From Eledone cirrhosa (Eukaryota): 64,000 nucleotides of DNA. The notes beneath the pieces are model-generated. The model did not search any database, was not told where the DNA came from, and was given only the letters and a program-made list of their open reading frames with translations. The stretch is from positions 13,082,001 to 13,146,000 of the forward strand of contig OZ024766.1 of NCBI GenBank assembly GCA_964016885.1, written 5' to 3'. Shown in pieces: positions 15,020 through 62,822 of this stretch (positions are counted from its first letter, which is position 1; each line of letters starts with the position of its first letter). The translations under genes and the position numbers were made by a program.

Positions 15020-15272
15020 GTGCTGAAATTCTTGTTTGACGGACTTCAGCCGGTCTGGTGGTAGCCTTTAGGTCGTGCAGCGACAGGTGGGCCGTGTGTT
15101 ATTATGCGAACTGCGCTTCGATGTGCGCGAACCACAGTGTTAGATCGTGCACCCAGAATGGTGGAATTCTTAATGTAAATGCCGCCCTCACTGCCATTTC
15201 TGCCGTAGATGAATCGTCGTGTGCTAGAGACATCGTTTGTAGTGGATGATCAGAAGTTGTGTGTCTGTTTTA

Positions 15273-15283
15273 CGGGGTCACCA
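15273..15283 (-). promoter_or_regulatory. Primer-binding site, tRNA-Trp type
   Basis: TGGTGACCCCG lies 2 nt after the 5' LTR end (…CCGTTACA). Confidence 0.75.
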
Positions 15284-15694
15284 GTTGTAACGGAATATGT
15301 GGTTGTATCGATCAGCCAGGCAGGAGAGGAAATTAGTGACGGACTGGTGTATTTCGTGACGAGAGCTTGTAAAGGCCACTTGTGTTGTCTGTATATCACT
15401 TCTTTTCTGTCGGGGCGTAAACAACCCCTGTATTTATAAGAGTTGAAGTTAGAAGGATAGATATATCCTCTGAACTTTGGTTAGAGTCTCCCAAGGGATT
15501 AGTTTGCCAAGCGTAAACAACTCAGAAAGATGGATATATTCTCTGACCTTTTCTGTCAGGCGTAAACACCTCTGACCTGTGTTTAGCATCCCCCAGGGGG
15601 TTAGTCTCTTGAGCGTAAACAACTTACCATGGCTTGTTCCAGAGGCGGGAAAGCTCAGATTCGGTTTCCAATCTTTGCCGCCGTTGTATATATA

Positions 15695-16140
15695 TAACAA
15701 AGGAGGTGTGGTAAGGAACCAGAAGGACCATAATGCACCAGAGTACTCAATATATAAATATATATATATCAGTGGCAAAGAGTAACCTGGAAAGCAGGGT
15801 ATGCAGTTCAATCGCCATGGTGGAAAGTATGAAAGTTGGCCTACTTTCATACACAATCCTTAGAATTTGCTGTTTAGATTTCACTTTCAACGCTTGACCG
15901 GCTCCCCCACTCCCTCATTGCTCTACAGGCAAGTTCAGCCATCCCCACCTCCCACCCACTGCCATGATAGACTTAATTGTGTTTACCAGGAATTTTTGAC
16001 CAATCCTCTTGACAGCTACAATCTTCCCATATAAGGAAGTACCCCTTGAAAAGTTCGGCTATTTATTTACCAGGCTAAAAATTCTAATTTAGTCCAGAAA
16101 TAGCCGTCGAAACGGCTTGAGCTCTACTGTCGGGGTCATA
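15695..16140 (+). mobile_element. Penelope-like pLTR remnant with an inverted terminal piece
   Basis: 15695-15752 is the reverse complement of 22064-22125, and about 15900-16140 parallels about 21780-22030. Confidence 0.65.
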
Positions 16141-19100: not shown

Positions 19101-19720
19101 TGTTTAGATCGCTAGCAATAATTAAGTAGTCGCTGTCGGTTATTTGGGAGGTAGTGTGCATTAGCATCTCATAGAACCTGTCCTTTATAACATCAGGGAG
19201 ACCAGATTGGGGTGCATAAGCGGATATTATTGTCACAGTAATTCTATTTAGAACTAGTCTTAATTCAATTATTCTGTCATTCACTATATTTACGTCATTA
19301 CCTTATCTACCCATTTTTCAGCTAACATAATTCCTACACTACCCTGTCCGTTGTCATTTCCCACCCAGAAAAGTTTATAGCATCGTTTTTTACCCACGAT
19401 GAATCTGGCAGATCCCCCTCTCCACCTAGTCTCTTGAATACAACAAACATCAACTTCTTTACGTTCAATCATCTCTACAACCTCATTTGAGCGACCTTTC
19501 AATGTGCCTACGTTCATGGTACCAACTCTGAAGTTGGGAGGGTGGGATGGATGGGTTGGAGGGGCAGGGAGGGGTGTGGGAGACGGGATTTTGTTGGTCA
19601 TCTGTGTCTGAAATAAAGAGGGATCCTTGTATTCTCGTCTTGCAGCAGGAGGTGAATTTGTCTTTATCTGTGACATTGTCATTGAGTGCCATACGTACAT
19701 ATATATATGTGTGCATGTAT
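16156..19720 (-). mobile_element. Near full-length RTE (BovB-like) LINE; ORF broken into 4 pieces
   Basis: APE endonuclease (GTMNVG, CIQETRW, SQIDYIL, SQHRLV), RT (VDLEKAFD, HQGSVLSP, YADD), a PHD-like Cys insert (CSVC..CPKC..H..C..CGQC) and a (gat)n tail. Confidence 0.93.
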
Positions 19721-20143
19721 ATATACTACTGTACGTCTGTATACATATATGTATGTATGTATACATACTTTATATTTAAGTAACAGCCGCACTAAGAGTG
19801 AGAAATGAAATTTTGTTTCATTTTTTCCACACATATATATATATATATAGAATAGGGGAAGGGGGTGGGGCTACTGAAGCTACAAAGGACCGAGGGGCTG
19901 CCTCGGGTGGGCGAGAAAATGAAAAGGACGACGACAAAGAAAGAGGACTGGGGTGGAAGGACTAGGGAGGGATGGGGAGAAGAAGGAAATATAGAGGAAG
20001 CGATAAAAAGATATAAAAGATCTTACGTCTACCTTTGCAAGCAGGGGTTACCCATTACAAAATCGGCAAGTGGGGTGTTATAGCCCTAGTCTACCCCACG
20101 GGTCATTATGGGGTTTTAGGGCGAGGTAAGTCCTACGCAATCT

Positions 20144-20818
20144 GTGTTTACATGCAGTAACCAGTTCAATCCTCCCCACAACGCCGAGGTGACAACTCCT
20201 ATCGGGAAAATCTTCTTTAGGCTCATTGAAAAACACTTCCCACTACAACACCGCTACCACAACATAATTAACAAAAATACCATCAAACTCTCTTACAGCA
20301 CCACACCAAACTTTGCACAAAATATCGTCTCCTCTAACAACAAAAAACTCAACCCCTATGGAAGAAATAACCTAAATAGCAGTGGAGAGCCGACCAGGAG
20401 GTGCAACTGTCCTGATGGATCCATTTTCCCCCTCGACAACAGATGCAGAGATCGTAATGTGATCTACCAGTGCAACGTGAGGACGGACACCTCCAACAAA
20501 GCTTATATAGGATTAACCGCATGTGACTTCAAGACCCGGCTATACCAACACAGGAATACCTTCCGAAACCCGGCCCGGCGTCACGCCACTACACTTTCGG
20601 GCCACATATGGGACCTCAAGGATAACAACATTACCTATGATCTCACTTGGAGCCTACTGTCCAGAGCCAACTCTTACACGGGAGGACGCCGTCCGTGCAA
20701 TTTATGCTCGGAGGAAACTTTACAAATGAAAGATGGACTAGTTACTGCATGTAAACATAGATTGCGTAGGACTTACCTCGCCCTCAAACCCCATAATGAC
20801 CCGGGGAGGGGAGACTAG
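20144..20818 (+). CDS. Penelope RT C-terminus + GIY-YIG endonuclease fragment (true homology starts at about 20165)
   Basis: FNPP..TPIGK, NKNTIKLSYS, CNC..PL..C, NVIYQ..YIGLT..FKTRLYQH, CNLC.EE. Confidence 0.85.
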   Translation: MFTCSNQFNPPHNAEVTTPIGKIFFRLIEKHFPLQHRYHNIINKNTIKLSYSTTPNFAQNIVSSNNKKLNPYGRNNLNSSGEPTRRCNCPDGSIFPLDNRCRDRNVIYQCNVRTDTSNKAYIGLTACDFKTRLYQHRNTFRNPARRHATTLSGHIWDLKDNNITYDLTWSLLSRANSYTGGRRPCNLCSEETLQMKDGLVTACKHRLRRTYLALKPHNDPGRGD

Positions 20819-22160: not shown

Positions 22161-22310
22161 AGACAGTTTCAGTATTTTTTGGCAAAAATAAGGAACCCTT
22201 TTGTACATCAATATGTACAACCAGACCTTTGAGCTGTTCAGGGGATGTAAACGCTTGGTCTATTTCTATAAAAGGAGAGGGTACCTGTATCGAAACATTA
22301 TCATTATCAG
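22161..22310 (+). CDS. Exon (phase 1-1) of EGF/F-type-lectin protein
   Basis: ctcatttcag acceptor and G|gtctgt donor; 150 nt open (xTVSVFFG...GTCIETLSLSG); joins the next exon in frame. Confidence 0.55.
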
Positions 22311-22469
22311 GTCTGTTGATCTTTATTCATTCAAACTTTAGTTGTTAATCTCTACAAACTGTGACTGTTAACCCTTTAGCATTTAAAGCGACTGTATCTG
22401 GCCAGAATTCTCTCACCTCTTTCTGTTCAAACTGGCTGTAACCAGCCGTTCATATTCATGTTAAGATAA

Positions 22470-23365
22470 TTGTTTCTACTTTAGGCACAAGGCCAGCAAT
22501 TACCCAGTGCATTACTCAGATCGTAAAGGGCCGTAACTCTATGCTGGAAAGCATGGCGTCCGACCCTCCACCGATACTGCCAACCCACCGTCCTTATTAA
22601 TGTTAAGATAATGTTCTCAAAATAGATAATATCAAAATCTAATATATTCAATATTATGTTTCTACTTTTGGGGGCACAAAGCCAGCAATTACCCCAGTGT
22701 ATTACTGATACTTTATTTTATCGACCCCCGTAAGGATGAATGGCAAAGTTATCCTCGACGGGATTTGAACTCAGACCATAATATTAGGTGAGATAATTAT
22801 GTGAGACTGGCAGTAATCGGTAGAGTGTCAGACATCATGTTTACGGCCCTTTATGTTCTGAGTTCAAATCCCGCCGAGGTTAACTTTGCCTTTCATCCTT
22901 ACAGGGGTCGATAAAATAAAGTACCAGTAATGCACTGGGGTAATTGCTGGATTGGACTGGCAGTAATCCGTAGAGCATCAGACACCATGTTTTGCAGCAT
23001 AGAATTATGGCCCTTTACGTTCTGAGTTCAAATCCTGCTGAAGTTAGCTTTGCCTTTCATTCTTACGGAGGTCGATAAATAAAGTACCAGTAATGCACTG
23101 GGGGTAATTGCTGACTGGCCTTGTGCCAAAAGTAGAAACAATTATTATTATTGGATTGGCAGTAATCCGTAGAGTGTCAGACACCATGCTTTGCAGCATA
23201 GAGTTATGGCCCTTTACGTTCTGATTTCAAACCCGCCAAGGTTTGCCTTTCATTCTTATGGGGGGAGGGGGGTCAATAAAATAAAGCACCAGTAATGCAC
23301 TGAGGTAATTCAGCAATTACCCCTGTGTATTACTGGTACCTTGTGCCAAATAGTAGAAACAATTA
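22470..23365. mobile_element. Cluster of SINE copies in both orientations, partly inserted into a reversed TTAA MITE starting at 22368
   Basis: Repeated gagttcaaatcccgccgaggttaactttgcctttcatcc...gtcgataaaataaagtaccag. atgttaagataat is duplicated around the first insert. Confidence 0.7.
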
Positions 23366-23432
23366 ACTGTAGATGAGAGAGAACTGTGGAAATGTAGTCC
23401 ATCAGTGTGATAAATTCTAACTTTTAACATAG

Positions 23433-24544: not shown

Positions 24545-25588
24545 CAGAGGTTCTCAAAGTGGGTGCTACTGCCGCAAGAGGGGTGCTGGGGCTTAAGGAT
24601 GGGGGTGGAGAGGATATAATAGTATATCAAATATCAAATGATAAATTTTATATATAAATATAGTAAAATAAAAAAGTATATGATATTTATTGATACATAG
24701 TATATATTATATAGTGGATAGAAATGAAGCAAGTATATGCTGTTGCATGTGTGATGTCAATTTGTGTGAACGACAAAGTATAGACGAGTTGAGAGAGAAA
24801 CTGTGTATAAGAGGGATAAGTTGTAGTGTGTGGGAGAGAAGACTGTGTTGGTATGGACATGTGATGCGCATGGTGGATGACAGCTGGGTAAAGAACTGCC
24901 AAGAAATCCCAGTAGAAGGAAGACACAGTAGAGGAAGATCACGAAAAACATGGGCAGAGGTGGTGAGAGCAGACCTCAGATCACTGAAGCTCATGGAGAA
25001 GATGACAAGGTACTGTGACAAATGGAGAGATGCTGTGTTTAATAAGACCTGTCCCACCCTTACAAGCAGGGAAAAGCGGATGTAAAATGATGATAATGAT
25101 GATGATAGTGAAGGCTGAGTGATTAGAGAATCGGATTTGCAATCGTGAGGTTGTGAGGTTGTTCTTTCTACCTGGAGTTGCAACTGATAGATAGTATTAG
25201 CAATTGGAAAGACCAATGGAAGCATTGATTCCGTGGTCCAATTTGATGGAAGTTGATCGACTTTCGATATATTATAGAAGGTAGGACACCATGCTTTGCA
25301 GCATAGAGTTACGGCCCTTTATGATCTGAGTTTAAATCCGTCCTAGGTTAATTTTGCCTTTCACCTTTACTGGGTCGATAAAATACAGTACCAGTAATAC
25401 ACTGGAGTAATTGCTGGCCTTGTGCCAAAAGTAGAAAGAATTATTTATTATATATCAACCATTTTATGTATTATATATTATTTACAATTTGCTTGTAGGT
25501 AGGTCTCTCTGGAAATAGGTGTGGTGTTTTAGAGGGTATTACAAGGCCGTGTGGGGGGCGATGGCCCCAAAAAGTTTGAGAACCTCTG
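24545..25588. mobile_element. hAT (Charlie-like) MITE with nested RTE 3' fragment and SINEs
   Basis: 14-bp TIR CAGAGGTTCTCAAA / TTTGAGAACCTCTG and 8-bp TSD ctctagaa/ttctagaa; RTE piece at about 24715-25108. Confidence 0.85.
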
Positions 25589-26095
25589 TTCTAGAATGTC
25601 ACCATTTACTAAAGACATTTATTTATAAATGGCATGAAACACACATGTTCCTAATTGTTTAACTGTTTGGATACCAAACTGTCTGAATCAACTCTACCCC
25701 TTGAACTTGAACTGGCACTGTCGGTTACAACAATGAGTGTTCCAGTTGACACTATTACTGGAACAGCCTGCTCATGAAATTAACGTGCAAGTGGCTGAGT
25801 ATTCCACAGACATGCATACCCTTAACCCTCTAGCATTTACATTACTCCATATCTAATATTACATTTTTGTGGTAAAGACTTTATCTTACATAATTATCTC
25901 ACATAATATCAAATCTATGAGATTTTGATATTATATATCTTAAAACCTTCTATCCTAACTTTATGTAAGAACATTTGTTAAGTTATATTTTAACTCTTTA
26001 GCATTTACATTACTCTATATATACTATTGTTTTGTCACATTAAAGGCGTTACCTCACATAATACCTCACATAACATTTACATTACTCTATATATA

Positions 26096-28412
26096 TTTAG
26101 CAGTATTAGTTGTAGATGTTATCGAGACACGAGTAACATAATAACGACTTCAACCGCAGTAATTAGAGATGAAATGTTTGTTTATTTATATGGTTGAAGT
26201 TACAGATACAAAGAGGTTACCAAATGGAATGTGCCATTGCGCCGTTAAGCCGGCGAGGCTAGTGGTGCAATATCTCACTGTTACATTATGCGTGTTGCTG
26301 GCTCGAAGTTTCTGGTACAAGCTAGAGATTCTTCAAATCTACGCGGTGAATTTCTTCCTCAGGGCGCGTAGGGATACATCCTCTTCTACTGGCGCTGATT
26401 GGCTGAACTGAGCCAAATCACGCACAGAGAATGTATGTGAGCCCAAGGAATGTAGGTCACTACATCACCTCCAACCAGATTTTCAGCCGAAAATCGATAA
26501 CGAAGAAACCAAGGATCCACATATTATTAAATCAGCAAGAACAAATGCTGAAAGAGCACATCAGTGAAAAAATAATTGAGCAGAAGGTTACATGCAAGAA
26601 CAAAAAATGAGGCGCTACGGGCCGTGTTGAGCCGCTGTGTTAAATGACCAGTTGTTTTGTTGTTTATACGTGACCGCCAAAGGTCTAACAAAAAACGGAT
26701 AAAGTCTGACATGGGCGAGGTTGCTGTTCTTGCATTAAATGTTAATGGTAAGCGTTGTACCAGTAGCTGTGAACGAAGCTATTATGGTAGTTTACCAGTG
26801 CTGGCGAGAAAATGATGGCCCCCAGATGTATTGTCGAATGTGCTGTGGAGCCAGGAAAAAATGGCTGGTTGCTTTGTAAAGAACAAAAGGCAAGTTTAAT
26901 CTGTAGGTGGGTTGCAGTGTAAATTCCATAATTCGGGCGAATCCACAGAAGTGGCCGAAATGCTAACAAGTCCAGTTCAATTTGTTGCTTTCCCAGCGAG
27001 TCGGGCAAAAACAACAAGACGGATGGCCGTCATGGACGATCAGTGTGCAACGAGATGCGAAGCTGTTTGAGTTCAGCGGCAATTAGTATTCTCGTGCTGC
27101 GGTGACTGTTTGAATCCAGTGGATTAAGCTCTGTGAGCTGCCAGCATCTCAACCAGGTGAAAAGGGACTCGCAGAATATTACGTTTGAAGAACATATACC
27201 AAGAACAACATGTTGGTGTGTGATAAAAAAAATGTGTGCATATGCAGGCATGTAAAACAGCAAAGAATGTGAATGAACAAAAACCATGAGCAAGCAAATA
27301 GCAAAAGAGCACAAAACAAGTAAATGCATTCTACAAAGAAATATGTGAATGTAACAAACTGATAATTCAAAGTCAATCTAGGGGAGCAGAGAAATTGCTC
27401 AATAAGTTCAAAGTTTTTCAAAGTCAAATAGTTCACACATCACCAGTGTACAGACACTAGTTCTATCTGAAAACTGAAAAAGAAGTTTGTTAATGCCGTT
27501 AGGGGTTAGATGTATGGTGTTTTTGTGAGATTTCGTGGCCATTTTCCCGTCCCGCCACACGGTTGTGTTGCTTATTGTTAAAGCAAAGTCAAAGAATCTT
27601 CTGTAGAGTAGGAGTCACCAAATATGGCAGTCACGTCTGACGCCATAATGGTGAGAAAACTACTGTCTCAATTTCTCGCGTCCCTGTGGTAACGAGACAG
27701 AAGGTATGGTGGTTGCGTCGGTAAAGTTACAAGCCGTTTTTAAATTTCCGATGTGTGGTGGTTGGCGTTGGTAAGGTTATGAAGCTGCCACTCACTGTTC
27801 CCTGTATTGGTCAGTGGTTAAACAACGCTTTCGCTGTTGCTGTCATTGTTGTTGTCAAGCGTAGCCATGACATGTCGGTAGCCATCTTGAAATTTTTTCG
27901 TGGCGAAAAAGTTTTTGAAATACTGCTAATTTTTCAAAAATCTTAAAAGGAATATTCTGGATTTTCGCAAGTTGCGACGTGGCAATAAAAGTTAAACTGA
28001 ATGAATAAGAAGGGCTGCGTGATATTCTTACGTCGGTCACCACTTTAGCAGTATTAGTTGTAGATGTTATCGAGACACGAGTAACATAATAACGACTTCA
28101 ACCGCAGTAATTAGAGATGAAATGTTTGTTTATTTATATGGTTGAAGTTACAGATACAAAGAGGTTACCAAATGGAATGTGCCATTGCGCCGTTAAGCCG
28201 GCGAGGCTAGTGGTGCAATATCTCACTGTTACATTATGCGTGTTGCTGGCTCGAAGTTTCTGGTACAAGCTAGAGATTCTTCAAATGTACGCGGTGAATT
28301 TCTTCCTCAGGGCGCGTAGGGATACATCCTCTTCTACTGGCGCTGATTGGCTGAACTGAGCCAAATCACGCACAGAGAATGTATGTGAGCCCAAGGAATG
28401 TAGGTCACTACA
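26096..28412 (-). mobile_element. Non-autonomous LTR retrotransposon (369-bp LTRs at 26096-26464 and 28044-28412)
   Basis: Near-identical direct repeats, PBS TGGTGACCGACGT at 28030-28042, PPT ggttggaggtga, 4-bp TSD tata/tcta, and a 1.58-kb interior without a long ORF. Confidence 0.88.
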
Positions 28413-29621
28413 TCTACTATTGTATTTTCACAGTAAAGGCCTTACCTCACATAATACCTCACATAACATTTACATTACTCTATATATACTATTGTATTTT
28501 CACAGTAAAGGCTTTACCTCACATAATATCTCATATAACATTTACATTACTCTATATATACTATTGTATTTTCACAGTAAAGGCTTTACCTCACATAATA
28601 CCTCGCATAACATTTACATTACTCTATATATACTATTGTATTTTCACAGTAAAGGCTTTACCTCACATAATATCTCACATAACATTTACATTACTCTATA
28701 TATACTATTGTATTTTCACAGTAAAGGCTTTACCTCACATAATACCTCACATAACATTTACATTACTCTATATATACTATTGTATTTTCACAGTAAAGGC
28801 TTTACCTCTCATAATACCTCACATAACATTTACATTACTCTATATATACTATTGTATTTTCACAGTAAAGGCTTTACCTCACATAATACCTCACATAACA
28901 TTTACATTACTCTATATATACTATTGTATTGTCACAGTAAAGGCTTTACTTCACATGATACCTCACATAACATTTACGTTACTCTATATATACTATTGTA
29001 TTTTTGTGGTAAAGGCTTTACCTCACATAATATCTCACATAACATTTACATGACTCTATATATACTATTGTATTGTCACAGTAGAGGCTTTTCCTCACAT
29101 GATACCTCACATAACATTTACATTACTCTATATATACTATTGTATTGTCACAGTAAATGCTTTACTTCACATAATATCTCACATAGCATTTACATTACTC
29201 TTTATATACTATTGTATTTTCACAGTAGAGGCTTTACCTCACATAATACCTCACATAACATTTACATGACTCTATATATACTATTGTATTTTCAAAGTAA
29301 AGGCTTTACTTCACATAATATCTCACATAACATTTACATGACTCTATATATACTATTGTATTGTCACAGTAAAGGCTTTACCTCACATAATATCTCACAT
29401 AACATTTACATTACTCTATATATACTATTGTATTGTCACAGTAAAGGCTTTACCTCACATAATACCTCACATAACATTTACATTACTCTATATATACTAT
29501 TGTATTTTCACAGTAAAGGCTTTACTTCACATAATATCTCACATAACATTTACATTACTCTATATATACTATTGTATTTTCACAGTAAAGGCTTTACCTC
29601 ACATAATATCTCACATAACAT
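28413..29621 (+). repeat. 72-bp MITE-internal satellite (about 17 copies)
   Basis: Unit tactattgtattttcacagtaaaggctttacctcacataatacctcacataacatttacattactctatata. Confidence 0.95.
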
Positions 29622-29831
29622 CTCGTATACGAGAGACGTGTGTTGACGTGTGTGAACAAGCTCGGCTACCGAGTCGGATTTACTTACTCAAAAAGTGAGT
29701 TTTGATTAATTTTTTATACTGTAATATACGGTAACCCCTTGCCTTGGTCGTCAAACTTTGAGTTTATTTATTTTCGCCCCTTTTTGGGGCGAATTTTCCA
29801 GTTAAAAATTTATTACGGTAAACTAATAGAA

Positions 29832-31553
29832 ATGGACGGAATTTTCACATCTCATCCTAACGTGAAAGCCACGCCCCCTAAGAAAGGTGATACAGAGAAG
29901 CTAGAAGCACAAGGCTCTAAGTCTTCCCTCCTCACTTCTGCAAAAGAAACATGGAACACGGAATTAAAAGAAAAATTTGTAAAAATGGGTGAAAACCCAG
30001 AAAGTCACATAAACGCAGACAAAAACAACAACGACAATAACAGCAATAGTCACAACACCAACCAAGGAATAAATAACGATAACACCAAACAAAGCGAACC
30101 CACTACTGGTGCCTCCTTTGCACAGGCGGTCCGAAAAACACAAACCTGCAAGCAACTGGACATTACAACTCTGAGAGAAAAGATGAAGGAAGCGAAACAG
30201 TATGTAACTTTCAAAGAAGGAGGAGACTTCACAATCACCTCCCCACAAGAAATCAAAAGAGACACGACGCTAAGAACGATATCTTTCAGAACAATTTCTA
30301 ACATAACAAGGAAACCAACTCAATTATCCCAAAAAGAGATTGAGCTGGTCCTAAAAAATGTGTGGAGTGATATATCGTTCATACAAAAAGGGCCACTCTA
30401 TGGGAATATAACGGTCCTAATGAAGGATCAATTGACGGCCAGGAAATACTCTGTGGCGCCAATTGTTTCCAAGCTACATACATTTTTCCCCACATATTTA
30501 GGGAAAAGAACGCAGAAGATAAGGGTCTCCGGAATCCGGCCAAATGCATGCATTTCCTGGGTACTAACAGGATTTTTAGAAGACGAGGACGGAATCCTTT
30601 CAGTAGGAGAAGTCACCACAGACGTTTTCGGCGGTTTGAGCGTGGAGGTTCTGGGCCAAATGAGACCAGAACGAATAGCTAGAATACCACAGAGGGTGTC
30701 CCTCGATGGAGAAACATTTATATATATTTCAGCCGAGGGTAAGAGGCCCATATGTTACTACTGTTCAAGCAGGGGTCATCTAATGGCTGCTTGTCCTCAA
30801 TTGACAAAAAAAAAGGCTCTTTTGCCTATACCCCACACACCACCACCGCCACCACCACCACCACCACAACAACAACAAAAACAACACGGAAAAATAACAC
30901 AAGACACGGCCCCACCCAAAACAACTCCCAAAACACACACAAATACAACAAAACCCCAAAATACACCACTACCCGACAGCACGGACGAGGACCCAGCTGA
31001 AACGGCACCTAGTGACGAAGAGGGGGAACCCTTCCAACCTGTAAAAAGGAAAACAAGAAAGCACCACTCGAACATAAACGAAACAAACACACAACGACCA
31101 ACAAAAACAAAACAAACAGAACAAACAAAATCCGCCCCGACCCAAAACATAACACATACAACAAAACGTAAGCACACACAAGAACAACAAACAAACACAA
31201 CACAAATAAAACAGTATACATACATTAACACAAATAACAAAGAACTCGTAAAAACAATACACAAAGACCCTTTGGTGGAAACTGAAGGGCAATTCTTTGC
31301 AAGCGCGGCCAACAAACCGCATTTAAAAATGATAAGACTCCCAATGGACACCTATGCAAAACTAAGAGAGAACTTTCCTGAGGACGTGGGGAAAACATGT
31401 ACTCGACCCTATAACCGCGTCCTCTTGAAACGTTTCCCCACCCACACCTCACCAAACACCCCCACTCCACCACAGAACAACACCCCACCAAACAACCCCT
31501 CCAATACGCCCATGGATATTGTGCAACCTGCTCCTCAGGAGCCGAACAGGTAG
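29832..31553 (+). CDS. Tx1-like ORF1 (gag-like, zinc knuckle)
   Basis: First ATG at about 29832; CYYCSSRGHLMAAC CCHC knuckle followed by a P/T/Q-rich tail; stops 21 nt before ORF2. Confidence 0.8.
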   Translation: MDGIFTSHPNVKATPPKKGDTEKLEAQGSKSSLLTSAKETWNTELKEKFVKMGENPESHINADKNNNDNNSNSHNTNQGINNDNTKQSEPTTGASFAQAVRKTQTCKQLDITTLREKMKEAKQYVTFKEGGDFTITSPQEIKRDTTLRTISFRTISNITRKPTQLSQKEIELVLKNVWSDISFIQKGPLYGNITVLMKDQLTARKYSVAPIVSKLHTFFPTYLGKRTQKIRVSGIRPNACISWVLTGFLEDEDGILSVGEVTTDVFGGLSVEVLGQMRPERIARIPQRVSLDGETFIYISAEGKRPICYYCSSRGHLMAACPQLTKKKALLPIPHTPPPPPPPPPQQQQKQHGKITQDTAPPKTTPKTHTNTTKPQNTPLPDSTDEDPAETAPSDEEGEPFQPVKRKTRKHHSNINETNTQRPTKTKQTEQTKSAPTQNITHTTKRKHTQEQQTNTTQIKQYTYINTNNKELVKTIHKDPLVETEGQFFASAANKPHLKMIRLPMDTYAKLRENFPEDVGKTCTRPYNRVLLKRFPTHTSPNTPTPPQNNTPPNNPSNTPMDIVQPAPQEPNR

Positions 31554-31574
31554 GTCCTTCCTCTTTTAACCAAC

Positions 31575-34500
31575 ATGGCTGATATAAGAGTTGGGTGTCT
31601 GAATGTACGCGGCCTGGGACTGTCTTGGAAACAAGGCAAACTTTTAAACGATCTCAGGTCGCATAGAATGGACGTAATGGCTATTTGCGAGTCCAGGATC
31701 AGCAGCGAGCACCAACTGGCGCCCCTCTTCGACGACTTTGAGATCTTCGCATCTCTCTGTCAACCGGAGGGTGGGGGTGGAGTTGTCGTTCTGCTGCGAA
31801 AACACCTGGGCCTCGCCATACAGAAGGTGCACCTGGACCCGGAGGGTCGACTGGTGGTTTTAGACGTCGGCAGTAGTGAAAGTGGAGCCCTTAGACTAAT
31901 AGCTGTGTACGCCCCTTTTTGGGCAGCACGGCCGGAATACTTCCAACGTCTGGAAACTTTTCTGGGATCGTCCCGCTCCTTGCTTTTAGTGGGGGACTGG
32001 AATGGTATCCTGGATGCACGTTGGGACTATGTAGGGGCATGTGCCAATAGAGGGGGGTGTAAAAGCCTCAAAAGGTTAATCGGCCGATTTGACCTGGCCG
32101 ATAGATATCGACTAGATTTTCCGACTGTACCACTATGGACGTGGACCAATCGCAGTGGAACATCTAGGTCGTACCTAGATAGGGTCCTAGTTAGAGAGAA
32201 GGATAGGGACACATTTAGCTGTCCAAAAATGTTCATGGTTGACTATTCGGATCACAAGTTAGTGACCTGCATAGCCAACCTTGATAGAACCCATAGACAG
32301 GGACCCGGTTACTGGAAGCTGAACTTGTCCTTACCGAGAAGCAAAGCTTACAGTAAACGGATTAACACGTTAGTTAAGCAGAGTTTGACAGGGGCAATTG
32401 TCAACAACAGGTGGTGGATCTCTCTTAAGAGAGCAATTAGAATAGAATCGATAGGTTTTAGTCAGGAATTAGCAAGGGATAGGAACAAGACGGAAAGGGA
32501 ATTAGTAGATAGAGTAGAAGAGGCGATTAGGAGTGGCAATGTAGCCAGCGTGCTGGCATCAAGAATGGCCTTAGACCAGTTCTTTGAGGTGAAGCATGAA
32601 AGCTGCGTTGTCAGGAGTAAAATACGTGCTCTGGGTAATGAGGGAGCCAAAGCTGTGAGCTGGGCCCGAGTGACAGAGGCAAAAAGTGGGAACAAGTCCA
32701 CGATTCGGTCTTTGAAGGACCAGGATGGGCATGTGATCCTTGAACCTGGGCAGATGTGTGCGGCCTTTCAGCGGCACTTTGCACGACTGTTCGAGAGGGG
32801 CGGCGCGCCGGGTGAGACTATGGATTTCAATCCATACCTCGACGGTCTGCCGCGCCTTTCGGACGCGGAGGCGAAGTCCTGCGAAAGGACGATTTCAGCT
32901 GCTGAGCCAATGCGGCAAACGCAAATCCCCGGGTCTCGATGGTCTACTATACGAGCTATATGTAGCGATGCCGGGCTTGTTCTCCGATATCCTCGAAGCG
33001 GTCTACTGCAACTGGCAGCAGAACGGGAGAATTCCCAGTTCTGTGACCAAGGGCGTAGTTACGCTGGTGAGGAAGGATGAGAACAAGGGGGATGACATAA
33101 GTAACTTCAGGCCCATAACTCTGCTAAATACAGAGTTAAAGATTTTGGCCAAGGTGTTAGCGAAGAGGTTGGCGCTTGTCATCGGAAACCTGGTGGGAGA
33201 AGCGCAGACATGCGCAATCCCGTCCAGGTCCATTCATGACAATCTCCACCTTATGCGATACATCATAGAGAGGGTAGGGAATGAACCCGGCTTTGGTGGG
33301 GCCCTGATCAACTTGGATCAATCTAAAGCTTTCGATAGGGTTGACCATCGTTACCTGGATGCAGTGCTCGCGGCGGCAGGCTTCGGACCCGTTTTCAGGG
33401 GTTGGATTGCTGCGATGCACAGCAGCAACGTCTGCTCAAGGGTCAAGGTGAACGGCCACCTCTCGGAGCCGTTCCAAATCATGCGATCCATCCGACAGGG
33501 ATGCCCTCTCTCCTCCCTACTGTATGTGCTGGCTCTTGAGCCACTACTGCGGAAGTTGGAGCGGTTGCAGGGCATCCCTTTGGAACCGGGATTGCAGAAA
33601 GCGGCATCGGCCTACGCCGATGACGTGACAGTAATGGTGTCGAAAACCTCGCAAATCGGTGAGATCGGCACCTTACTGGAGGAATATGAAAGGTTTACAG
33701 GAGCCAAGCTGAACCGGGACAAGTCCGTCGGTTTGCAACTCGGAACATGGAGAGGCAAACCGATGCCCTCCAACGACGTCGTCGGACGCTGGACGGAGGG
33801 CCCGGTGGAGCTGCTTGGGGTCTGGTTCGGACCAGACCTCCAGGTGGAGAAAAACTGGAACGAGTTAACGGCCAGGGTGTTTGCCCTCACCCAGAAGTGG
33901 GCCCAGTGCAAACTATCCCTGAAAGGTCGAGCGGAGGTGGCGAATACTTATATAGCATCCGTCATCTACTACCGCTTGACCGTCGTGCCTTGCCCAGCGA
34001 AAAGACTCGCCAAAATGGAGTGCGCGCTGTTCCAATTTCTTTGGAACAAGCGGACCCCTTTGGTGAGGAGATCCATCTGCTGTCAACACCCTTCGAAAGG
34101 AGGGCTGGGGATATCATGGCTAAAGATGCGTAAACACGCATTAAGGCTACGGCACCTCCAGGTATTCCTCACCGGTCAACCGGTGTGGGCCCCGTTTGTG
34201 AGGCGAGCCTTTCCCAGACTCGTCTCGCTCACCGAGCTGCAAACCTGGGTCAAGCAAAGACCGAGAAAAGTGGGCGACTGGCACATTGAATGTGCCCAGG
34301 CGCTCACGGCCCTCTGGAAAGCGGACCCGGCAATCAGTGGAGACTCCACCTCGACATTCTATAGAGGGTTGGTACGCAGCAGGTGCAACGATGCTCTCGG
34401 AGAAGCTCTAGGCATGGAGGAAGATGAACTGGCCAGTCTGTTCGGTAGGACGTTTGGCCCTGGACCGATGGACAACTTCCAAAAGTCCCTGGCTTGGCAG

Positions 34501-34995
34501 TGCTACCGAGGGGCTCTACCCGTTCGAGACAAGCTCCACAGGCATGGGAGCCTGGGTAGAGATCCTTTGAATAAGATCTGTCCGAGATGCGTGCATGATG
34601 ACGAAACCGTTGCGCACGCATTCGTACACTGCCCAGGCATTGCTGACCTGTGGGGCTATGTGGAACGACTACTGTCGAGGGTGGGACCAATCCGGTTGAC
34701 CACCGAGTCTATTGTCACGATCAAACCGCCTCCCCCTTTCAAAAACGAAGGAGAGGCGGTTTTTCTCTGTGTGGTAGCCATGGCTAAAGAAGTTGTATGG
34801 TGGACGAGGCTGAAAGGGCTGAGGTCAGACACCTTTCTCTCCGGCCAACAACTGGTCCCCTTTTTCAAATACCATTTTAAAAGAAGGATCAGAATGGAGA
34901 GAGAGGTGCTCTACCCTAGCAAGTTTTATGAAAGGTGGGTGAAAGTAGGGAGAATGGCCAGAGTGAATGGGTCTTCTCTCTATATCAGCCTGTAG
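31575..34995 (+). CDS. Tx1-like ORF2 (APE endonuclease, RT, zf-RVT) with one frameshifting deletion near 32905
   Basis: CLNVRG, VGDWN, SYLDR, SDHK; KSPGLDG, FRPITLLN, LDQSKAFDRV, RQGCPLS, YADD; CPRC..ETVAHAFVHC. Confidence 0.9.
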
Positions 34996-35232
34996 GTGAA
35001 AGAAGAGCAAAAAGAGGAGACAAGGGAAGCACCTACTCTTTGTGCTCCTGAGGAGAAGGGTTGCACATTTTTTCCGGGGTGTGTGCGACCCATGTTAATG
35101 CCCCCTCCCTATTGAGGACTTCGTTTGTTGTTGTTATTTCATTGTTATATTTTTGTACTCGTTAATTATATGTAAACTTCCCCCCTTGTATCTGTCCCTA
35201 CCTTTTGTGCCCTAGTGGCAAATAAAGAAACC

Positions 35233-35655
35233 ACTCTATATATACTATTGTATTGTCACAGTAAAGGTTTTACCTCACATAATACCTCACATAGCATTTA
35301 CATTACTCTATATATACTATTGTATTGTCACAGTAAAGGCTTTACCTCACATAATATCTCACATAACATTTACATTACTCTATATATACTATTGTATTGT
35401 CACAGTAAAGGCTTTACCTCACATAATATCTCACATAACATTTACATTACTCTATATATACTATTGTATTTTCACAGTAAAGGCTTTACCTCACATAATA
35501 TCTCACATAACATTTACATTACTCTATATATACTATTGTATTGTCACAGTAAAGGCTTTACCTCACATAATATCTCACATAACATTTACATTACTCTATA
35601 TATACTATTATATTTTCACAGTAAAGACTTTACCTCACATAATATCTCACATAAT
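35233..35655 (+). repeat. 72-bp satellite, continuation (about 6 copies)
   Basis: Same unit as 28413-29621; runs into the MITE 3' body. Confidence 0.95.
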
Positions 35656-35816
35656 ATCGAATCTATGAGATTTTGATATTATTTATTTTAAGAACAATAC
35701 CATAACATAAGTATGAATGGCCAGTAACGGTCGATTTGAACAGAAAGAGGAGAGAGAATTCTAGCCGGATACGGCCGGTTTAAATGCTAAAGGGTTAACT
35801 GATTTGTTTATTAATT

Positions 35817-36299
35817 ACACTGGTCAAAAAAATGTTGCTTTTTTCTGCTGACCTAAGTTTGAGATGTGTTCTTGAGTAATTAGGGACCCCTGAGTTTACA
35901 AATGACAACACTTTTTCCTATCATGTCAAGTTTTTTTTCTTAAATCTCTGGGCTGGTCGATATTGGCCCCACCCATAGCTTCAACAGATAGGACTCCGCT
36001 CATGACACGTATTGCTAACTTAGGTTTTGTTGTTGTTGTTCAACTAATTTTGAGGTGCTGATGTCATATATGGCATCCCCTCCGCCCCACACCAGTCTGT
36101 CATTCTATAGCACATTCCTATGTTGTTATGTACTGTATGAATAATATAATTTTGTTGACCAGGGGTAGCCATGTTTCCTGTGTTTATCGGATAAGTCAAA
36201 CATGAGAACTTGATGTGTTAGCAAACAATGGATGACATATTTGAACTCAGCATCTCTAAATTAGCTTAAAACAACTGTAAAAGCTGTGTGGACCAGTGT
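35817..36299. mobile_element. Putative short DNA-transposon derivative
   Basis: Terminal inverted 9-mer acactggtc / gaccagtgt; the family was not recognised. Confidence 0.35.
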
Positions 36300-36307
36300 T
36301 ACTTATC

Positions 36308-39300
36308 GCAGAAACTGGTGCAGTAATACATCAACCCCAGTGCAGAAACTGGAGCATTAATACATCAACCCCAGTGCAGTAATACATCAATCCCAGTGCA
36401 GAAACTAGTGCAGTAATACATCAACCCCAGTGCAGTAATACATCAACCCCAGTGCAGTAACTGGTGCAGTAATACCTCAACCCCAGTGCAGTAATACATC
36501 AACCCCAGGGCAGAAACTGGTGCAGTAATACATCAACCCCAGTGCAGAAACTGGTGCAGTAATACATCAACCCCAGTGCAGAAACTGGTGCAGTAATACA
36601 TCAACCCCAGTGCAGTAATACATCAACCCCAGTGCAGAAACTGGTGCAGTAATACATCAACCCCAGTGCAGTAATACATCAACCCCAGTGCAGTAATACA
36701 TCAACCCCAGTGCAGTAATACATCAACCCCAGTGCAGTAATACATCAACCCCAGTGCAGAAACTGGTGCAGTAATACATCAACCCCAGTGCAGTAACTGG
36801 TGCAGTAATACATCAACCCCAGTGCAGTAACTGGTGCAGTAATACATCAACCCCAGTGCAGTAATACATCAACTCCAGTGCAGAAACTGGTGCAGTAATA
36901 CATCAACCCCAGTGCAGTAATACATCAACCCCAGTGCAGTAATACATCAACCCCAGTGCAGTAATACATCAACCCCAGTGCAGTAATACATCAACCCCAG
37001 TGCAGAAATTGGTGCAGTAATACATCAACCCCAGTGCAGTAATACATCAACCCCAGTGCAGAAACTGGTGCAGTAATACATCAACCCCAGTGCAGAAACT
37101 GGTGCAGTAATACATCAACCCCAGTGCAGTAACTGGTGCAGTAATACATCAACCCCAGTGCAGTAACTGGTGCAGTAATACATCAACCCCAGTGCAGTAA
37201 CTGGTGCAGTAATACATCAACCCCAGTGCAGAAACTGGTGCAGTAATACATCAACCCCAGTGCAGTAATACATCAACCCCAGTGCAGAAACTGGTGCAGT
37301 AATACGTCAACCCCAGTGCAGTAATACATCAAACCCAGTGCAGAAACTGGTGCAGTAATACATCAACCCCAGTGCAGTAACTGGTGCAGTAATACATCAA
37401 CCCCAGTGCAGTAACTGGTGCAGTAATACATCAACCCCAGTGCAGTAACTGGTGCAGTAATACATCAACCCCAGTGCAGTAACTGGTGCAGTAATACATC
37501 AACCCCAGTGCAGTAATACATCAACCCCAGTGCAGTAACTGGTGCAGTAATACATCAACCCCAGTGCAGAAACTGGTGCAGTAATACATTAACCCCAGTG
37601 CAGTAATACATCAACCCCAGTGCAGTAGTACATCAACCCCAGTGCAGAAACTGGTGCAGTAATACATCAACCCCAGTGCAGTAATACATCAACCCCAGTG
37701 CAGTAATACATCAACCGCAGTGCAGAAACTGGTGCAGTAATACATCAACCCCAGTGCAGTAATACATCAACTCCAGTGCAGAAACTGGTGCAGTAATACT
37801 TCAACCCCAGTGCAGAAACTGGTGCAGTAATACATCAACCCCAGTGCAGTAATACATCAACCCCAGTGCAGAAACTGGTGCAGTAATACATCAACCCCAG
37901 TGCAGTAATACATCAACCCCAGTGCAGAAACTGGTGCAGTAATACATCAACCCCAGTGCAGAAACTGGTGCAGTAATACATCAACCCCAGTGCAGTAACT
38001 GGTGCAGTAATACATCAACCCCAGTGCAGTAACTGGTGCAGTAATACATCAACCCCAGTGCAGTAATACATCAACCCCAGTGCAGAAACTGGTGCAGTAA
38101 TACATCAACCCCAGTGCAGTAATACATCAACCCCAGTGCAGTAATACATCAACCCCAGTGCAGAAACTGGTGCAGTAATACGTCAACCCCAGTGCAGTAA
38201 TACATCAACCCCAGTGCAGAAACTGGTGCAGTAATAAATCAACCCCAGGGCAGAAACTGGTGCAGTAATACATCAACCCCAGTGCAGAAACTGGTGCAGT
38301 AATACATCAACCCCAGTGCAGTAATATATCAACCCCAGTGCAGAAACTGGTGCAGTAATACATCAACCCCAGTGCAGTAATACATCAACCCCAGGGCAGA
38401 AACTGGTGCAGTAATACATCAACCCCAGTGCAGTAATACATCAACCCCAGGGCAGAAACTGGTGCAGTAATACATCAACCCCAGTGCAGAAACTGGTGCA
38501 GTAATACATCAACCCCAGGGCAGAAACTGGTGCAGTAATAATCAACCCCAGTGCAGTAATACATCAACCCCAGTGCAGAAACTGGTGCAGTAATACATCA
38601 ACCCCAGTGCAGTAATACATCAACCCCAGGGCAGAAACTGGTGCAGTAATACATCAACCCCAGTGCAGTAATACATCAACCCCAGGGCAGAAACTGTTGC
38701 AGTAATACATCAACCCCAGTGCAGAAACTGGTGCAGTAATACATCAACCCCAGGGCAGAAACTGGTGCAGTAATACATCAACCCCAGTGCAGAAACTGGT
38801 GCAGTAATACATCAACCCCAGTGCAGAAACTGGTGCAGTAATACATCAACCCAGTGCAGTAATACATCAACCCCAGTGCAGAAACTGGTGCAGTAATACA
38901 TCAACCCCAGTGCAGTAATACATCAACTCCAGTGCAGAAACTGGTGCAGTAATACATCAACCCCAGTGCAGAAACTGGTGCAGTAATACATCAACCCCAG
39001 TGCAGTAATACTTCAACCCCAGTGCAGAAACTGGTGCAGTAATACATCAACCCCAGGGCAGTAACTGGTGCAGTAATACATCAACCCCAGTGCAGTAACT
39101 GGTGCAGTAATACATCAACCCCAGTGCAGTAATACATCAACCCCAGTGCAGTAATACATCAACCCCAGTGCAGAAACTGGTGCAGTAATACATCAACCCC
39201 AGTGCAGTAACTGGTGCAGTAATATATCAACCCCAGGGCAGTAACTGGTGCAGTAATACATCAACCCCAGTGCAGAAACTGGTGAAGTAATACATCAACC

Positions 39301-41700
39301 CCAGGGCAGTAACTGGTGCAGTAATACATCAACCCCAGTGCAGTAACTGGTGCAGAAATACATCAACCCCAGTGCAGTAACTGGCGCAGTAATACATCAA
39401 CCCCACTTCAGTAATACATCAACCCCAGGGCAGAAACTGGTGCAGTAATACATCAAGCCCAGTGCAGAAAATGGTGCAGTAATACATCTACCCCAGTGCA
39501 GTAATACATCAACCCCAGTGCAGAAACTGGTGCAGTAATACATCAACCCCAGTGCAGTAATACATCAACCCCAGGGCAGAAACTGGTGCAGTAATACATC
39601 AACCCCAGTGCAGAAACTGGTGCAGTAATACATCAACCCCAGTGCAGAAACTGGTGCAGTAATACATCAACCCCAGTGCAGTAACTGGTGCAGTAATACA
39701 TCAACCCCAGTGCAGTAACTGGTGCAGTAATACATCAACCCCAGTGCAGAAACTGGTGCAGTAATACATCAACCCCAGTGCAGTAATACATCAACCCCAG
39801 TGCAGAAACTGGTGCAGTAATACATCAACCCCAGTGCAGAAACTGGTGCAGTAATACATCAACCCCAGTGCAGAAACTGGTGCAGTAATACATCAACACC
39901 AGTGCAGTAATACATCAACCCCAGTGCAGTAATACATCAACCCCAGTGCAGTAATACATCAACCCCAGTGCAGAAACTGGTGCAGTAATACATCAACCCC
40001 AGTGCAGAAACTGGTGCAGTAATACATCAACCCCAGGGCAGAAACTGGTGCAGTAATACATCAACCCCAGTGCAGTAATACATCAACCCCAGTGCAGAAA
40101 CTGGTGCAGTAATACATCAACCCCATTGCAGAAACTGGTGCAGTAATACATCAACCCCAGTGCAGAAACTGGTGCAGTAATACATCAACACCAGTGCAGT
40201 AATACATCAACCCCAGTGCAGTAATACATCAACCCCAGTGCAGTAATACATCAACCCCAGTGCAGAAACTGGTGCAGTAATACATCAACCCCAGTGCAGA
40301 AACTGGTGCAGTAATACATCAACCCCAGTGCAGAAACTGGTGCAGTAATACATCAACCCCAGGGCAGAAACTGGTGCAGTAATACATCAACCCCAGTGCA
40401 GTAATACATCAACCCCAGGGCAGAAACTGGTGCAGTAATACATCAACCCCAGGGCAGAAACTGGTGCAGTAATACATCAACCCCAGTGCAGAAACTGGTG
40501 CAGTAATACATCAACCCCAGTGCAGAAACTGGTGCAGTAATACATCAACCCCAGGGCAGAAACTGGTGCAGTAATACATCAACCCCAGTGCAGTAATACA
40601 TCAACCCCAGGGCAGAAACTGGTGCAGTAATACATCAACCCCAGGGCAGAAACTGGTGCAGTAATGCATCAACCCCAGTGCAGAAACTGGTGCAGTAATA
40701 CATCAACCCCAGTGTAGTAATACATCAACCCCAGGGCAGAAACTGGTGCAGTAATACATCAACCCCAGTGCAGTAATACATCAACCCAGGGCAGAAACTA
40801 GTGCAGTAATACATCAACCCCAGTGCAGAAACTGGTGCAGTACTACATCAACCCCAGGGCAGAAACTGGTGCAGTAATACATCAACCCCAGTGCAGTAAT
40901 ACATCAACCCCAGGGCAGAAACTGGTGCAGTAATACATCAACCCCAGTGCAGTAATACATCAACCCCAGGGCAGAAACTGGTGCAGTAATACATCAACCC
41001 CAGTGCAGTAATACATCAACCCCAGGGCAGAAACTGGTGCAGTAATACATCAACCCCAGTGCAGTAATACATCAACCCCAGGGCAGAAACTGGTGCAGTA
41101 ATACATCAACCCCAGTGCAGAAACTGGTGCAGTAATACATCAACCCCAGGGCAGAAACTGGTGCAGTAATACATCAACCCCAGTGCAGTAATACATCAAC
41201 CCCAGGGCAGAAACTGGTGCAGTAATACATCAACCCCAGGGCAGAAACTGGTGCAGTAATACATCAACCCCAGGGCAGAAACTGGTGCAGTAATACATCA
41301 ACCCCAGTGCAGAAACTGGTGCAGTAATACATCAACCCCAGTGCAGAAACTGGTGCAGTAATACATCAACCCCAGTGCAGTAATACATCAACCCCAGTGC
41401 AGAAACTGGTGCAGTAATATATCAACCCCAGTGCAGAAACTGGTGCAGTAATACATCAACCCCAGTGCAGTAATACATCAACCCCAGTGCAGAAACTGAT
41501 GCAGTAATACATCAACCCCAGTGCAGAAACTGGTGCAGTAATACATGAACCCCAGGGCAGAAACTGGTGCAGTAATACATCAACCCCAGGGCAGAAACTG
41601 GTGCAGTAATACATCAACACCAGGGCAGTAACTGGTGCAGTAATACATCAACCCCAGTGCAGTAACTGGTGCAGTAATACATCAACCCCAGGGCAGAAAC
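36308..41700 (+). repeat. Two-module minisatellite (22-bp gtgcagtaatacatcaacccca, with or without 12-bp gtgcagaaactg), about 5.4 kb
   Basis: 22- and 34-bp units are irregularly interspersed, with variants gtgcag/gggcag and aaactg/taactg. Confidence 0.95.
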
Positions 41701-41983
41701 TACTGCATTTGTTGACCATAGCTAGGGATATAGGTGTAGAAACTATACTCACTACCTTCAGTTCAGTATTTGTGCCAACCCTTACCTAGGGTCACACATC
41801 TTGGGTAATGTCCGAAAGAACTTGATCGTGAATGGCAGAGATCAAAGTAAGAGGCACTCAATGGCATTTCCAATTTATAAGAACCTGAAAGGCTTCGTCA
41901 CAAGCTGTCCCTCTTTATCATGTTTTGGGTTTCTTTGCTGTAATTTTGCTGACCCTTGCTTTCTACATAAATTATCTAAACGG

Positions 41984-47900: not shown

Positions 47901-48195
47901 AGACTTCCCCCTGGACAGGACACCAGTACATCACAGGGTTATGTTAAGTCTAAACTCTGTCTTAAACCAGAATGATGTTAAGCTGGTAGTTATCCTGGTT
48001 TCATGGTGTGAAGTGACTGAGAGTACAAGACTTCCCCCTGGACAGGACACCAATCCATCACAGGGTTATGTTAAGTCTAAAGTCTGTCTTAAGCTAGAAG
48101 AATGTTAGGCCGGTACTTATCCTGGTTTCATGGTGTGAAGTGACTGAGAGTACAAGACTTCCCCCTGGACAGGACACCAGTCCATCACAGGGTTA
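41984..48195 (+). repeat. 127-bp satellite (about 49 copies) derived from a SINE 3' tail
   Basis: The unit matches 23760-23875, and the last copy runs on into SINE body (…tttcagctgagtatactggag at about 48225-48243). Confidence 0.93.
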
Positions 48196-51365: not shown

Positions 51366-52617
<1,252 letters not shown>

Positions 52618-62820: not shown

Positions 62821-62822
62821 TA

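Follow-up and report, generated by a model that had tools for sequence, protein, structure and literature searches.

A Tx1-group LINE and an LTR element nested in the amplified repeat of a piggyBac-like MITE in Eledone cirrhosa

Did the LINE at this locus seek out the repeat of its host transposon, or did it simply land there? The question is raised by positions 25990-35798 of the 64-kb stretch of Eledone cirrhosa DNA analysed here (the window), which form a TTAA-flanked, piggyBac-like MITE of 9.8 kb with two insertions that split its inner array. An initial annotation had likened this arrangement to the Tx1D/Tx1L composite of Xenopus and had suggested that the LINE is specialised on the MITE repeat and that the composite could be moved as a unit. 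From left to right, the parts are as follows.

25990-26007, plus strand: TTAA target duplication on the left (25990-25993), followed by a 14-bp TIR whose second base is changed from C to T
25999-26095, plus strand: first array block (A) with about 1.3 of the 72-bp units, starting inside the left TIR
26096-26464, minus strand: non-autonomous LTR element, 3' LTR (369 bp), preceded on the minus strand by a purine-rich tract
26465-28043, minus strand: non-coding interior of the LTR element, longest ORF 115 aa
28044-28412, minus strand: 5' LTR, 369 bp, one mismatch to the other LTR
28413-29621, plus strand: second array block (B) with about 16.8 of the 72-bp units
29622-29831, plus strand: LINE 5' UTR, 210 bp, with a 14-bp palindrome across the 5' junction (29621-29634)
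29832-31553, plus strand: LINE ORF1, 573 aa, open, with a weak CCHC knuckle
31575-34995, plus strand: LINE ORF2 with APE endonuclease, reverse transcriptase (RT) and zf-RVT, without an in-frame stop in either piece
34996-35232, plus strand: LINE 3' UTR, 237 bp, with an AATAAA signal at its end and no poly(A) tract
35233-35654, plus strand: array block C, about 5.9 units, restarting 7 bp further along the unit than the end of block B
35655-35798, plus strand: right end of the MITE with its unique arm, TIR (35781-35794) and TTAA (35795-35798)

The 9.8-kb span does carry both TIRs and both TTAAs, as first described, and 17 of the 18 bases agree between its ends at 25990 and 35798; owing to the C>T exchange at the second base inside the TTAA, the left end reads CTC. 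The 18-mer end motif occurs seven times in the window with at most three mismatches, against 0.09 expected occurrences (0 of 100 shuffles reached seven), and CCC follows the TTAA in five of the seven matches. piggyBac MITEs are characterised by a TTAA duplication and short TIRs starting with CCC (ends CCC...GGG). The TTAA duplication, the short TIRs and the lack of coding capacity are all present here, and no ORF of the 64-kb window stood out as a transposase. A T2-MITE or Kolobok identity was rejected, as the ends read CCC or CTC and not AGGRR or RR inside the TTAA.

The approximately 24-fold amplification of the inner unit was likewise confirmed, with a unit of 72 bp, three blocks and 23.99 units in total. 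The 22 whole units differ from the majority sequence by 3.0% on average (0-6 differences each), and the array is 72% AT and gene-free. The two whole units that border the LINE, one on each side, are identical at all but 1 of 72 bases, and the last four units on the left differ from the five on the right by a mean of 1.65 positions, compared with 2.17 among those four. The repeats on both sides thus form one continuous array, which was already complete when the LINE inserted; the LINE took no part in the amplification.

One of the two insertions is a young LTR element on the minus strand (26096-28412), whose LTRs are identical at 368 of 369 positions and which has no recognisable coding sequence. 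It is flanked by TATA and TCTA, consistent with a duplicated 4-bp target in which one base differs. Two LTRs, a primer site, a purine tract, the duplication and the lack of coding sequence are features of a non-autonomous Ty3/Gypsy-type element; the Gypsy label rests on the TGG-starting, primer-site-like motif after the 5' LTR, which resembles that of a Gypsy element at 15.3 kb and which we take to correspond to tRNA-Trp. The LTR starts with TG and lacks a CA end, and the interior contains no tRNA and no Rfam match and does not resemble the Gypsy element at 11.8-15.7 kb.

The LINE itself (29622-35232) is a young, 5.6-kb insertion of the L1/Tx1 group. The initial annotation had called it a full Tx1-like element, which holds for its length and its intact ORF1, but ORF2 is frameshifted near 32905, where about 17 bp are missing in comparison to its relative P0001, and this copy can no longer make full ORF2. 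In the Tx1 clade, ORF1 encodes RNA-binding domains and a CCHC knuckle. Here, the zf-CCHC match lies under the curated cut-off (E 0.0025-0.007), the language-model (Atlas) features stand at 0.90-0.92 to clusters of CCHC and ZCCHC3-type RNA-binding proteins, and residues 100-330 have no sequence homologue among 1006 candidates; PF23057, PF23058 and PF00098 are carried by Tx1-like hits. ORF2 matches PF03372, PF00078 and PF13966, and the catalytic residues of the endonuclease are kept, being invariant in a seven-row alignment with Tx1L. The fold of the 5' end is not unusual (z -1.27), and an RNA-gene head such as that of Tx1-Mar was not detected, with no Rfam match at E<=1 within 25500-36500 and no tRNA in the window.

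Residues 1-420 of the RT align with Tx1L (ORF2 reference P14381, P0275) at 218 bits and 35% identity over 420 aa, compared with 123-125 bits for human L1 ORF2p (residues 3-405) and 57-79 bits for R2, where the Tx1L and human L1 scores come from two different searches and human L1 alone represents L1; by sequence, the RT is nearer to Tx1 than to L1. An RT tree of 56 rows, in which the RTE outgroup drew long branches, was rebuilt with 29 rows, leaving out RTE, both Pelobates, Paramuricea, Serrasalmus, one Branchiostoma and 21 unnamed rows; neither tree holds an L1 row, and the root is not fixed. In the 29-row tree, the 11-row lineage of the query is split from the other 18 rows (100/100), and the nearest named relatives, Argonauta GAB1597330.1 (63% identity) and Sepia CAE1328542.1 (52%), belong to one clade with full support. 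The RT is Tx1-like by its scores but lies in a separate lineage and not beside Tx1L (a single clade uniting Tx1L with the query lineage, a grouping named after the quick 56-row tree, was rejected by the AU test, p=0.00013). Since the LINE is not a close relative of Tx1L, any shared targeting habit would be convergent. The best RT match among 8000 candidates scored (proteins of 381-1213 aa) is 72-73% identical, and therefore no copy of the LINE family is among them. For Octopus vulgaris, 80 L1-Tx1 families have been reported (PMC13282606), and the family may already be present in that published library or in Repbase.

At the junction, 7 bp of the unit are absent, exactly as the insertion site had been drawn. 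Tx1L generates a target duplication of 23 bp. Around the Eledone LINE, there is no target-site duplication, neither of this fixed type nor of another length. A long duplication hidden by the array, for which 65 bp would be the tandem equivalent of the 7-bp loss, was rejected, as 4 of the 65 bases mismatch, which is within the range of ordinary units (2-8). According to parts of the literature on APE LINEs, duplications of 10-20 bp are usual (PMC6895275), and deletion of target bases is possible for site-specific elements too (PMC6895275, PMC4640811). The 18-bp site of the LINE has 26 matches in the window, most of them in the 72-bp array, where the LINE occupies 1 of about 24 equivalent positions; no second Tx1 piece was found in the 64 kb by tblastn. 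The hairpin loop of the endonuclease aligns without gaps to that of human L1 and is two residues shorter than that of Tx1L. Loop length is, however, a weak guide, because the loop of the R1Bm-loop chimera is shorter than that of L1, yet R1Bm is specific, and because grafting of the Tx1L loop did not transfer Tx1L specificity in the experiments described in part of PMC1950540.

Other copies of the LINE or of the composite were also looked for. The RT alignment gave 35 pattern matches and no confirmed match in GTDB genomes, the exact 27-bp repeat core had no match there, and the DNA of the LINE 3' junction had none in plasmids. A junction-spanning peptide returned six weak, unrelated hits at 32-39% identity, and no copy, from 1.84 billion representatives. 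As these collections are mostly prokaryotic, the blank searches say nothing on specificity; with no second LINE copy and its flanks in the collections searched, n=1 for the LINE, and a single copy cannot show that it seeks the MITE repeat.

The MITE family itself is represented elsewhere in the window.

5478-5954, plus strand: two short head-to-tail MITE copies with one common TTAA, 60-bp unit, two and one units
22368-22810, minus strand: partial MITE copy with two SINE-like inserts that have their own duplications (13 bp and 6-7 bp)
25822-25941, plus strand: left-half MITE-family copy that lacks a right end and lies just beyond the composite

The short copies, which had been put forward as the basic form of the long one, are indeed two elements sharing one TTAA (5478-5743, 266 bp; 5740-5954, 215 bp), but their 60-bp unit and their 80-82% identity to the right arm of the long copy assign them to another subfamily. 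Altogether, MITE-family DNA in the window has received four insertions of three classes (the LINE, the LTR element and two SINE-like inserts). The SINE-like inserts are no clean measure of a MITE hotspot, as they belong to a group of such inserts concentrated at 22.3-23.4 kb. Their 3' ends are a little like that of the LINE, and as partners of the LINE they would reveal its target through their own insertions, but this partnership was rejected: four tails gave local scores of 14-18, scores that 28-330 of 2000 shuffles reached, and 115 of 4259 window segments score at least 18.

Local evidence leans towards opportunistic nesting over targeting, because the LINE has no duplication and uses 1 of about 24 sites, and because the MITE family also took LTR and SINE-like inserts. 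We consider it probable that ordinary nesting at this site produced the 9.8-kb structure, with a LINE that at most loosely prefers AT-rich or repeated DNA. A non-autonomous piggyBac-type MITE, the ends of which are observed, would have inserted at a TTAA with a transposase presumably acting in trans, and a subterminal 72-bp segment would then have grown into the observed array of about 24 units by slippage or unequal exchange. The LINE would have entered this existing array by target-primed reverse transcription, with a putative priming nick at GAGT^AATG on the bottom strand suggested by the 3' junction, and the 7-base loss could stem from a second nick upstream or from later repair. The non-coding Gypsy-type element would have inserted independently at TATA in another unit, either before or after the LINE, and the 72%-AT, gene-free array may have been a tolerated landing place for both. 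Alternatively, the LINE family may be specialised on the MITE repeat, with an endonuclease that nicks at or near GAGT^AATG and an abundant, non-coding MITE offering a safe niche; this would be a case of convergence with both Tx1L and the crocodilian Tx1-Mar. We regard this as doubtful on present evidence, even though the prior for targeting is not small, since parts of PMC4494074 describe many Tx1 families as target-specific, several of them for DNA transposons, a habit that arose several times. The Tx1-like RT, the abundance of the target, a 5' end that looks complete (UTR and intact ORF1) and the preserved catalytic residues speak for specialisation, and low occupancy of the array is also compatible with a specific element. 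Against it stand n=1, the missing duplication, the unrelated elements in the same MITE family and an RT lineage that is not sister to that of Tx1L; moreover, at 43-45% identity, relatives fall into clusters with 385-732 members, as would suit high-copy families, although these counts may pool samples. A more specific proposal, tentative and in our view unlikely to be right, is that specialisation on the subterminal repeat of a piggyBac MITE arose independently in a Tx1 lineage of cephalopods that is unrelated to Tx1L and whose cutting deletes the target instead of duplicating it.

Movement of the MITE with its LINE, and possibly its LTR element, as one unit by a piggyBac transposase, now or recently, with the LINE hitchhiking, is very improbable in our view. 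Both ends and both TTAAs are in place, but one copy is seen, without a second composite in collections that would hardly hold one, the array is continuous across the LINE, the cargo is roughly 40-fold larger than a short copy, and the second base of the left TIR carries a mutation; the TIR changes expected since the LTR insertion amount to about 0.04 in both TIRs (at most 0.2 at the upper age bound, with a borrowed rate). This part of the initial annotation is not supported. The 474 active piggyBac insertions of 3,666,023 bp (7.7 kb each) in Table 1 of PMC13282606 were rejected as support for long composites, as the TIR subtotal adds up only with 366,023. Misassembly at a collapsed tandem repeat as the source of the nesting would suit two insertions within a near-identical array and a LINE junction without duplication or tail, but we judge it extremely unlikely, given the distinct variants among units along the array, a unit phase that shifts by no more than 7 bp from one side of the LINE to the other, and the near-perfect 4-bp duplication of the LTR element.

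If ordinary nesting is correct, the locus documents, in a tidy but unremarkable way, how a MITE turns into a satellite and gathers young insertions. If targeting were true, the LINE would show that TE-on-TE targeting by Tx1 LINEs also arose independently in an invertebrate, its APE endonuclease would have a new target, and its L1-sized hairpin loop would permit a comparison with Tx1L on the determinants of specificity. Amplification of MITE units into satellites would then create more landing sites, tying MITE-to-satellite growth to LINE spread in octopus genomes. We found no invertebrate LINE living on a transposon-borne satellite in the literature searched, and no target analysis of cephalopod L1-Tx1 families in the literature examined.

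Tx1D of Xenopus laevis has TTAA ends and inner tandem repeats. Parts of PMC4494074 class it as a non-autonomous piggyBac element, and in both systems a two-ORF APE LINE lies inside a non-autonomous DNA transposon. The likeness to Tx1D/Tx1L first noted therefore stands for the layout, a TTAA MITE with a Tx1-like LINE in its amplified inner repeat, but not for kinship with Tx1L: ORF2 has about 1,145 aa in the Eledone LINE and 1,308 in Tx1L, and target specificity is proven for Tx1L, whereas it is only a candidate property, from one copy, here. Xmix and Xstir of Xenopus (T2-MITE) are also TTAA MITEs with an inner segment amplified into a tandem repeat (PMC6004289); compared by description only, T2-MITEs end in AGGRR (Kolobok type), whereas the Eledone MITE has CCC...GGG (piggyBac type). 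Crocodilian Tx1-Mar, Tx1-9_AMi and LTR-targeting Tx1 are likewise Tx1 LINEs on transposons (parts of PMC4494074), and as these families prefer Mariner-N4, Harbinger and LTR elements, the habit evolves repeatedly; if targeting is true, the Eledone LINE is a further case beside the published families that target Tx1D, Mariner, Harbinger and LTR elements. The crocodilian evidence in that source rests on many copies, truncated ones included, compared with one for Eledone, and the targets are not described there as tandem arrays, whereas the Eledone LINE sits in an array.

The nested structure at 25990-35798 is genuine and probably unremarkable. The initial annotation had described a MITE with an amplified internal repeat, an LTR element and a LINE, and this anatomy was confirmed by the ends, the repeat count and the two insertions. 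The MITE is bounded by TTAA and a 14-bp TIR, with 17 of 18 end bases identical and a C-to-T exchange at position 2 of the left TIR. Its end motif matched seven times in the window (0.09 expected), at the following sites:

5478-5743: both ends of a short copy
5740: a second short copy, whose more diverged right end was recognised by alignment
22368: partial copy
25822: partial copy
25990-35798: both ends of the composite

Minus both insertions, the MITE measures ~1,880 bp, of which ~1,727 bp are 23.99 units of a 72-bp repeat that starts within the left TIR and corresponds to the 60-bp unit of the 5478 copy extended by an internal duplication of 12 bp. The right arms are 80-83% identical across four copies. 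The copies at 5478-5954 stand head-to-tail with one common TTAA, an arrangement that would arise if one had inserted into the other's target duplication. At 25822-25989, a left-half copy is followed by ~50 bp matching another repeat at 58800-58919 (minus strand), which the left TTAA of the composite directly adjoins; a continuation of this sequence was sought to the right of 35798 and not found. We take the CCC...GGG ends of the MITE to be of the piggyBac type. They differ from the AGGRR ends given for T2/Kolobok MITEs in the available text of PMC6004289, which also offers Xmix/Xstir as a precedent for a TTAA MITE with an amplified inner repeat.

Two elements interrupt the array:

26096-28412, minus strand: LTR element with paired 369-bp LTRs
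29622-35232, plus strand: LINE with a 210-bp 5' UTR, ORF1 (573 aa), a 21-bp spacer, ORF2 and a 237-bp 3' UTR

The LTRs, flanked by TATA and TCTA, differ by one mismatch, which dates the insertion to ~0.4 My (95% range 0.01-2.1) at a rate borrowed from O. bimaculoides (0.0036 per site per My, as quoted in the accessible part of PMC13282606). Within the interior, the longest ORF is at most 115 aa, tRNA and Rfam searches gave no match, and comparison with the window's Gypsy element (11.8-15.7 kb) revealed no similarity. The 5,136 coding bases of the LINE are free of in-frame stops, which bounds the decay of the element at ~1.6%, or 4.5 My at the same borrowed rate. ORF2 encodes endonuclease, RT and zf-RVT domains and changes frame near 32905, with ~17 bp fewer than its relative P0001; ORF1 matches CCHC weakly, and its features lie close to clusters of the CCHC and ZCCHC3 types. 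The 3' UTR ends with AATAAA and lacks poly(A). The whole 72-bp units flanking the LINE differ from each other by one base, and the end of the upstream block (28413-29621) is as similar to the downstream block (35233-35654) as neighbouring units are; it follows that the LINE entered an existing array, which was not amplified again together with the insert.

The proposed parallel to Xenopus Tx1L within Tx1D held in part. The RT piece (residues 1-420) scored 218 bits against Tx1L ORF2 (P14381) versus 123-125 bits against human L1 ORF2p, and nesting of the RT inside Tx1 is likely, the 29-row tree being unrooted and without an L1 row. Its nearest named relative is from Argonauta hians (63%), followed among cephalopods by Sepia pharaonis (52%). 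With these affinities the window, which is animal DNA, most likely comes from an octopod, and its C2H2 zinc-finger arrays and RTE elements agree with such a source. The tree joined the query with Argonauta (100/99) within an 11-row lineage including Sepia (100/100), and Tx1L with Oryzias and Leuciscus proteins (100/97). A group of the query lineage with Tx1L, named after an earlier tree had been seen, was rejected (p-AU 0.00013).

At the LINE junction, the array breaks off after CATAACAT and restarts at ACTCT, so that 7 bp are absent without any duplication. In a tandem array, such a loss is equivalent to a 65-bp duplication; a hidden one was rejected, as the two 65-mers are four mismatches apart, inside the range of 2-8 seen against 16 upstream units. 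Tx1L, in contrast, makes a 23-bp target duplication. The junction neither matches Tx1L nor excludes a specific enzyme, because a deletion results when the second nick lies upstream, 10-20 bp duplications being usual for APE LINEs (PMC6895275, available text). A perfect 14-bp palindrome spans the 5' junction (29621-29634) and may mark the real 5' end or stem from second-strand priming. The endonuclease hairpin loop, which helps choose the target, aligns ungapped with human L1 and is two residues shorter than that of Tx1L; among three close relatives shown, it is short in one and of Tx1L length in two. This evidence is weak because loop grafts did not transfer specificity, according to the accessible text of PMC1950540.

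Further elements in the window are:

3212-3991 (minus strand) and 51270-52628: C2H2 zinc-finger arrays, spread across several frames
11800-15700, minus strand: Gypsy-type LTR retrotransposon; its RT-RNaseH-integrase frame has 783 aa, its LTRs are ~92-94% identical and gag is mostly missing
16498-19769 (minus strand), 9246-10434, 24684-25085 and 57555-57905: RTE-type LINE copies, the longest with a PHD-like finger downstream of the RT
36308-41701: young large tandem array of 22/34-bp units
41984-48195: young large tandem array of 49 127-bp units (97% matches)
53978-55704: young large 72-bp tandem array without match to the MITE unit
59757-64000: young large 34-bp tandem arrays, with orientation flips around 62820-63280

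An abundant SINE-like repeat (22300-23400, 25277-25440, 49302-49971, 56104-56616) ends in GTAGAAAC plus short ATT-type repeats, and its 3' 80 bp form an eight-unit array at 49302-49931, a second mobile element seeding a satellite. On visual inspection, a 232-aa frame at 20120-20818 resembles the GIY-YIG endonuclease of Penelope-like elements, with no Pfam match. An exon-like frame at 24186-24542 matches F5/8 type C (galactose-binding) weakly; a lectin-domain gene may contain or adjoin the composite.

Opportunistic nesting of the LINE in the array is the reading that we consider fairly probable. The LINE occupies one of ~24 array sites, and tblastn found no other Tx1 sequence in the 64-kb window. 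Besides the LTR element, the MITE family also hosts two SINE-like inserts with duplications of 13 bp and 6-7 bp, in its copy at 22368-22810; that copy lies within a local cluster of such inserts. Specialisation of the LINE on the MITE repeat appeared unlikely, yet worth considering, when one copy in a repeat was weighed on priors alone. This estimate is our judgement rather than a computed value and assumes that ~40% of Tx1 families are specific, ~40% of those for transposons or satellites, and that a non-specific copy lands in repeats ~60% of the time, the last based on a genome repeat share of 66% (PMC13282606, available text). Local signs lowered it slightly, and targeting is thus rather doubtful. 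Searches for a second copy in collections with little cephalopod DNA were blank and, for that reason, uninformative on specificity: GTDB, where none of 35 protein-based candidates was confirmed and the repeat core had 0 matches, plasmids (0), the junction peptide (six matches, all unrelated) and ORF1 (0 of 1006). That the whole composite moved as one unit, as had been suggested, was not borne out and is very improbable; the mutated left TIR counts mildly against recent movement.

The accessible text of PMC13282606 lists 80 L1-Tx1 and 36 piggyBac families for O. vulgaris, and no target analysis was found in it. Within the literature searched, no cephalopod Tx1 was described as targeting a MITE, which is not proof of absence because Repbase Reports and most subscription papers lay outside its scope. 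Tx1L is cited as the standard case (PMC6719617 and PMC1919474, both in part), and the available portion of PMC4494074, with a flank criterion of 20% for target preference, describes Tx1 families with a preference for Tx1D, Mariner-N4, Harbinger or LTR elements. Targeting of the MITE repeat, if true, would be one more case among these already published Tx1 preferences for transposons.
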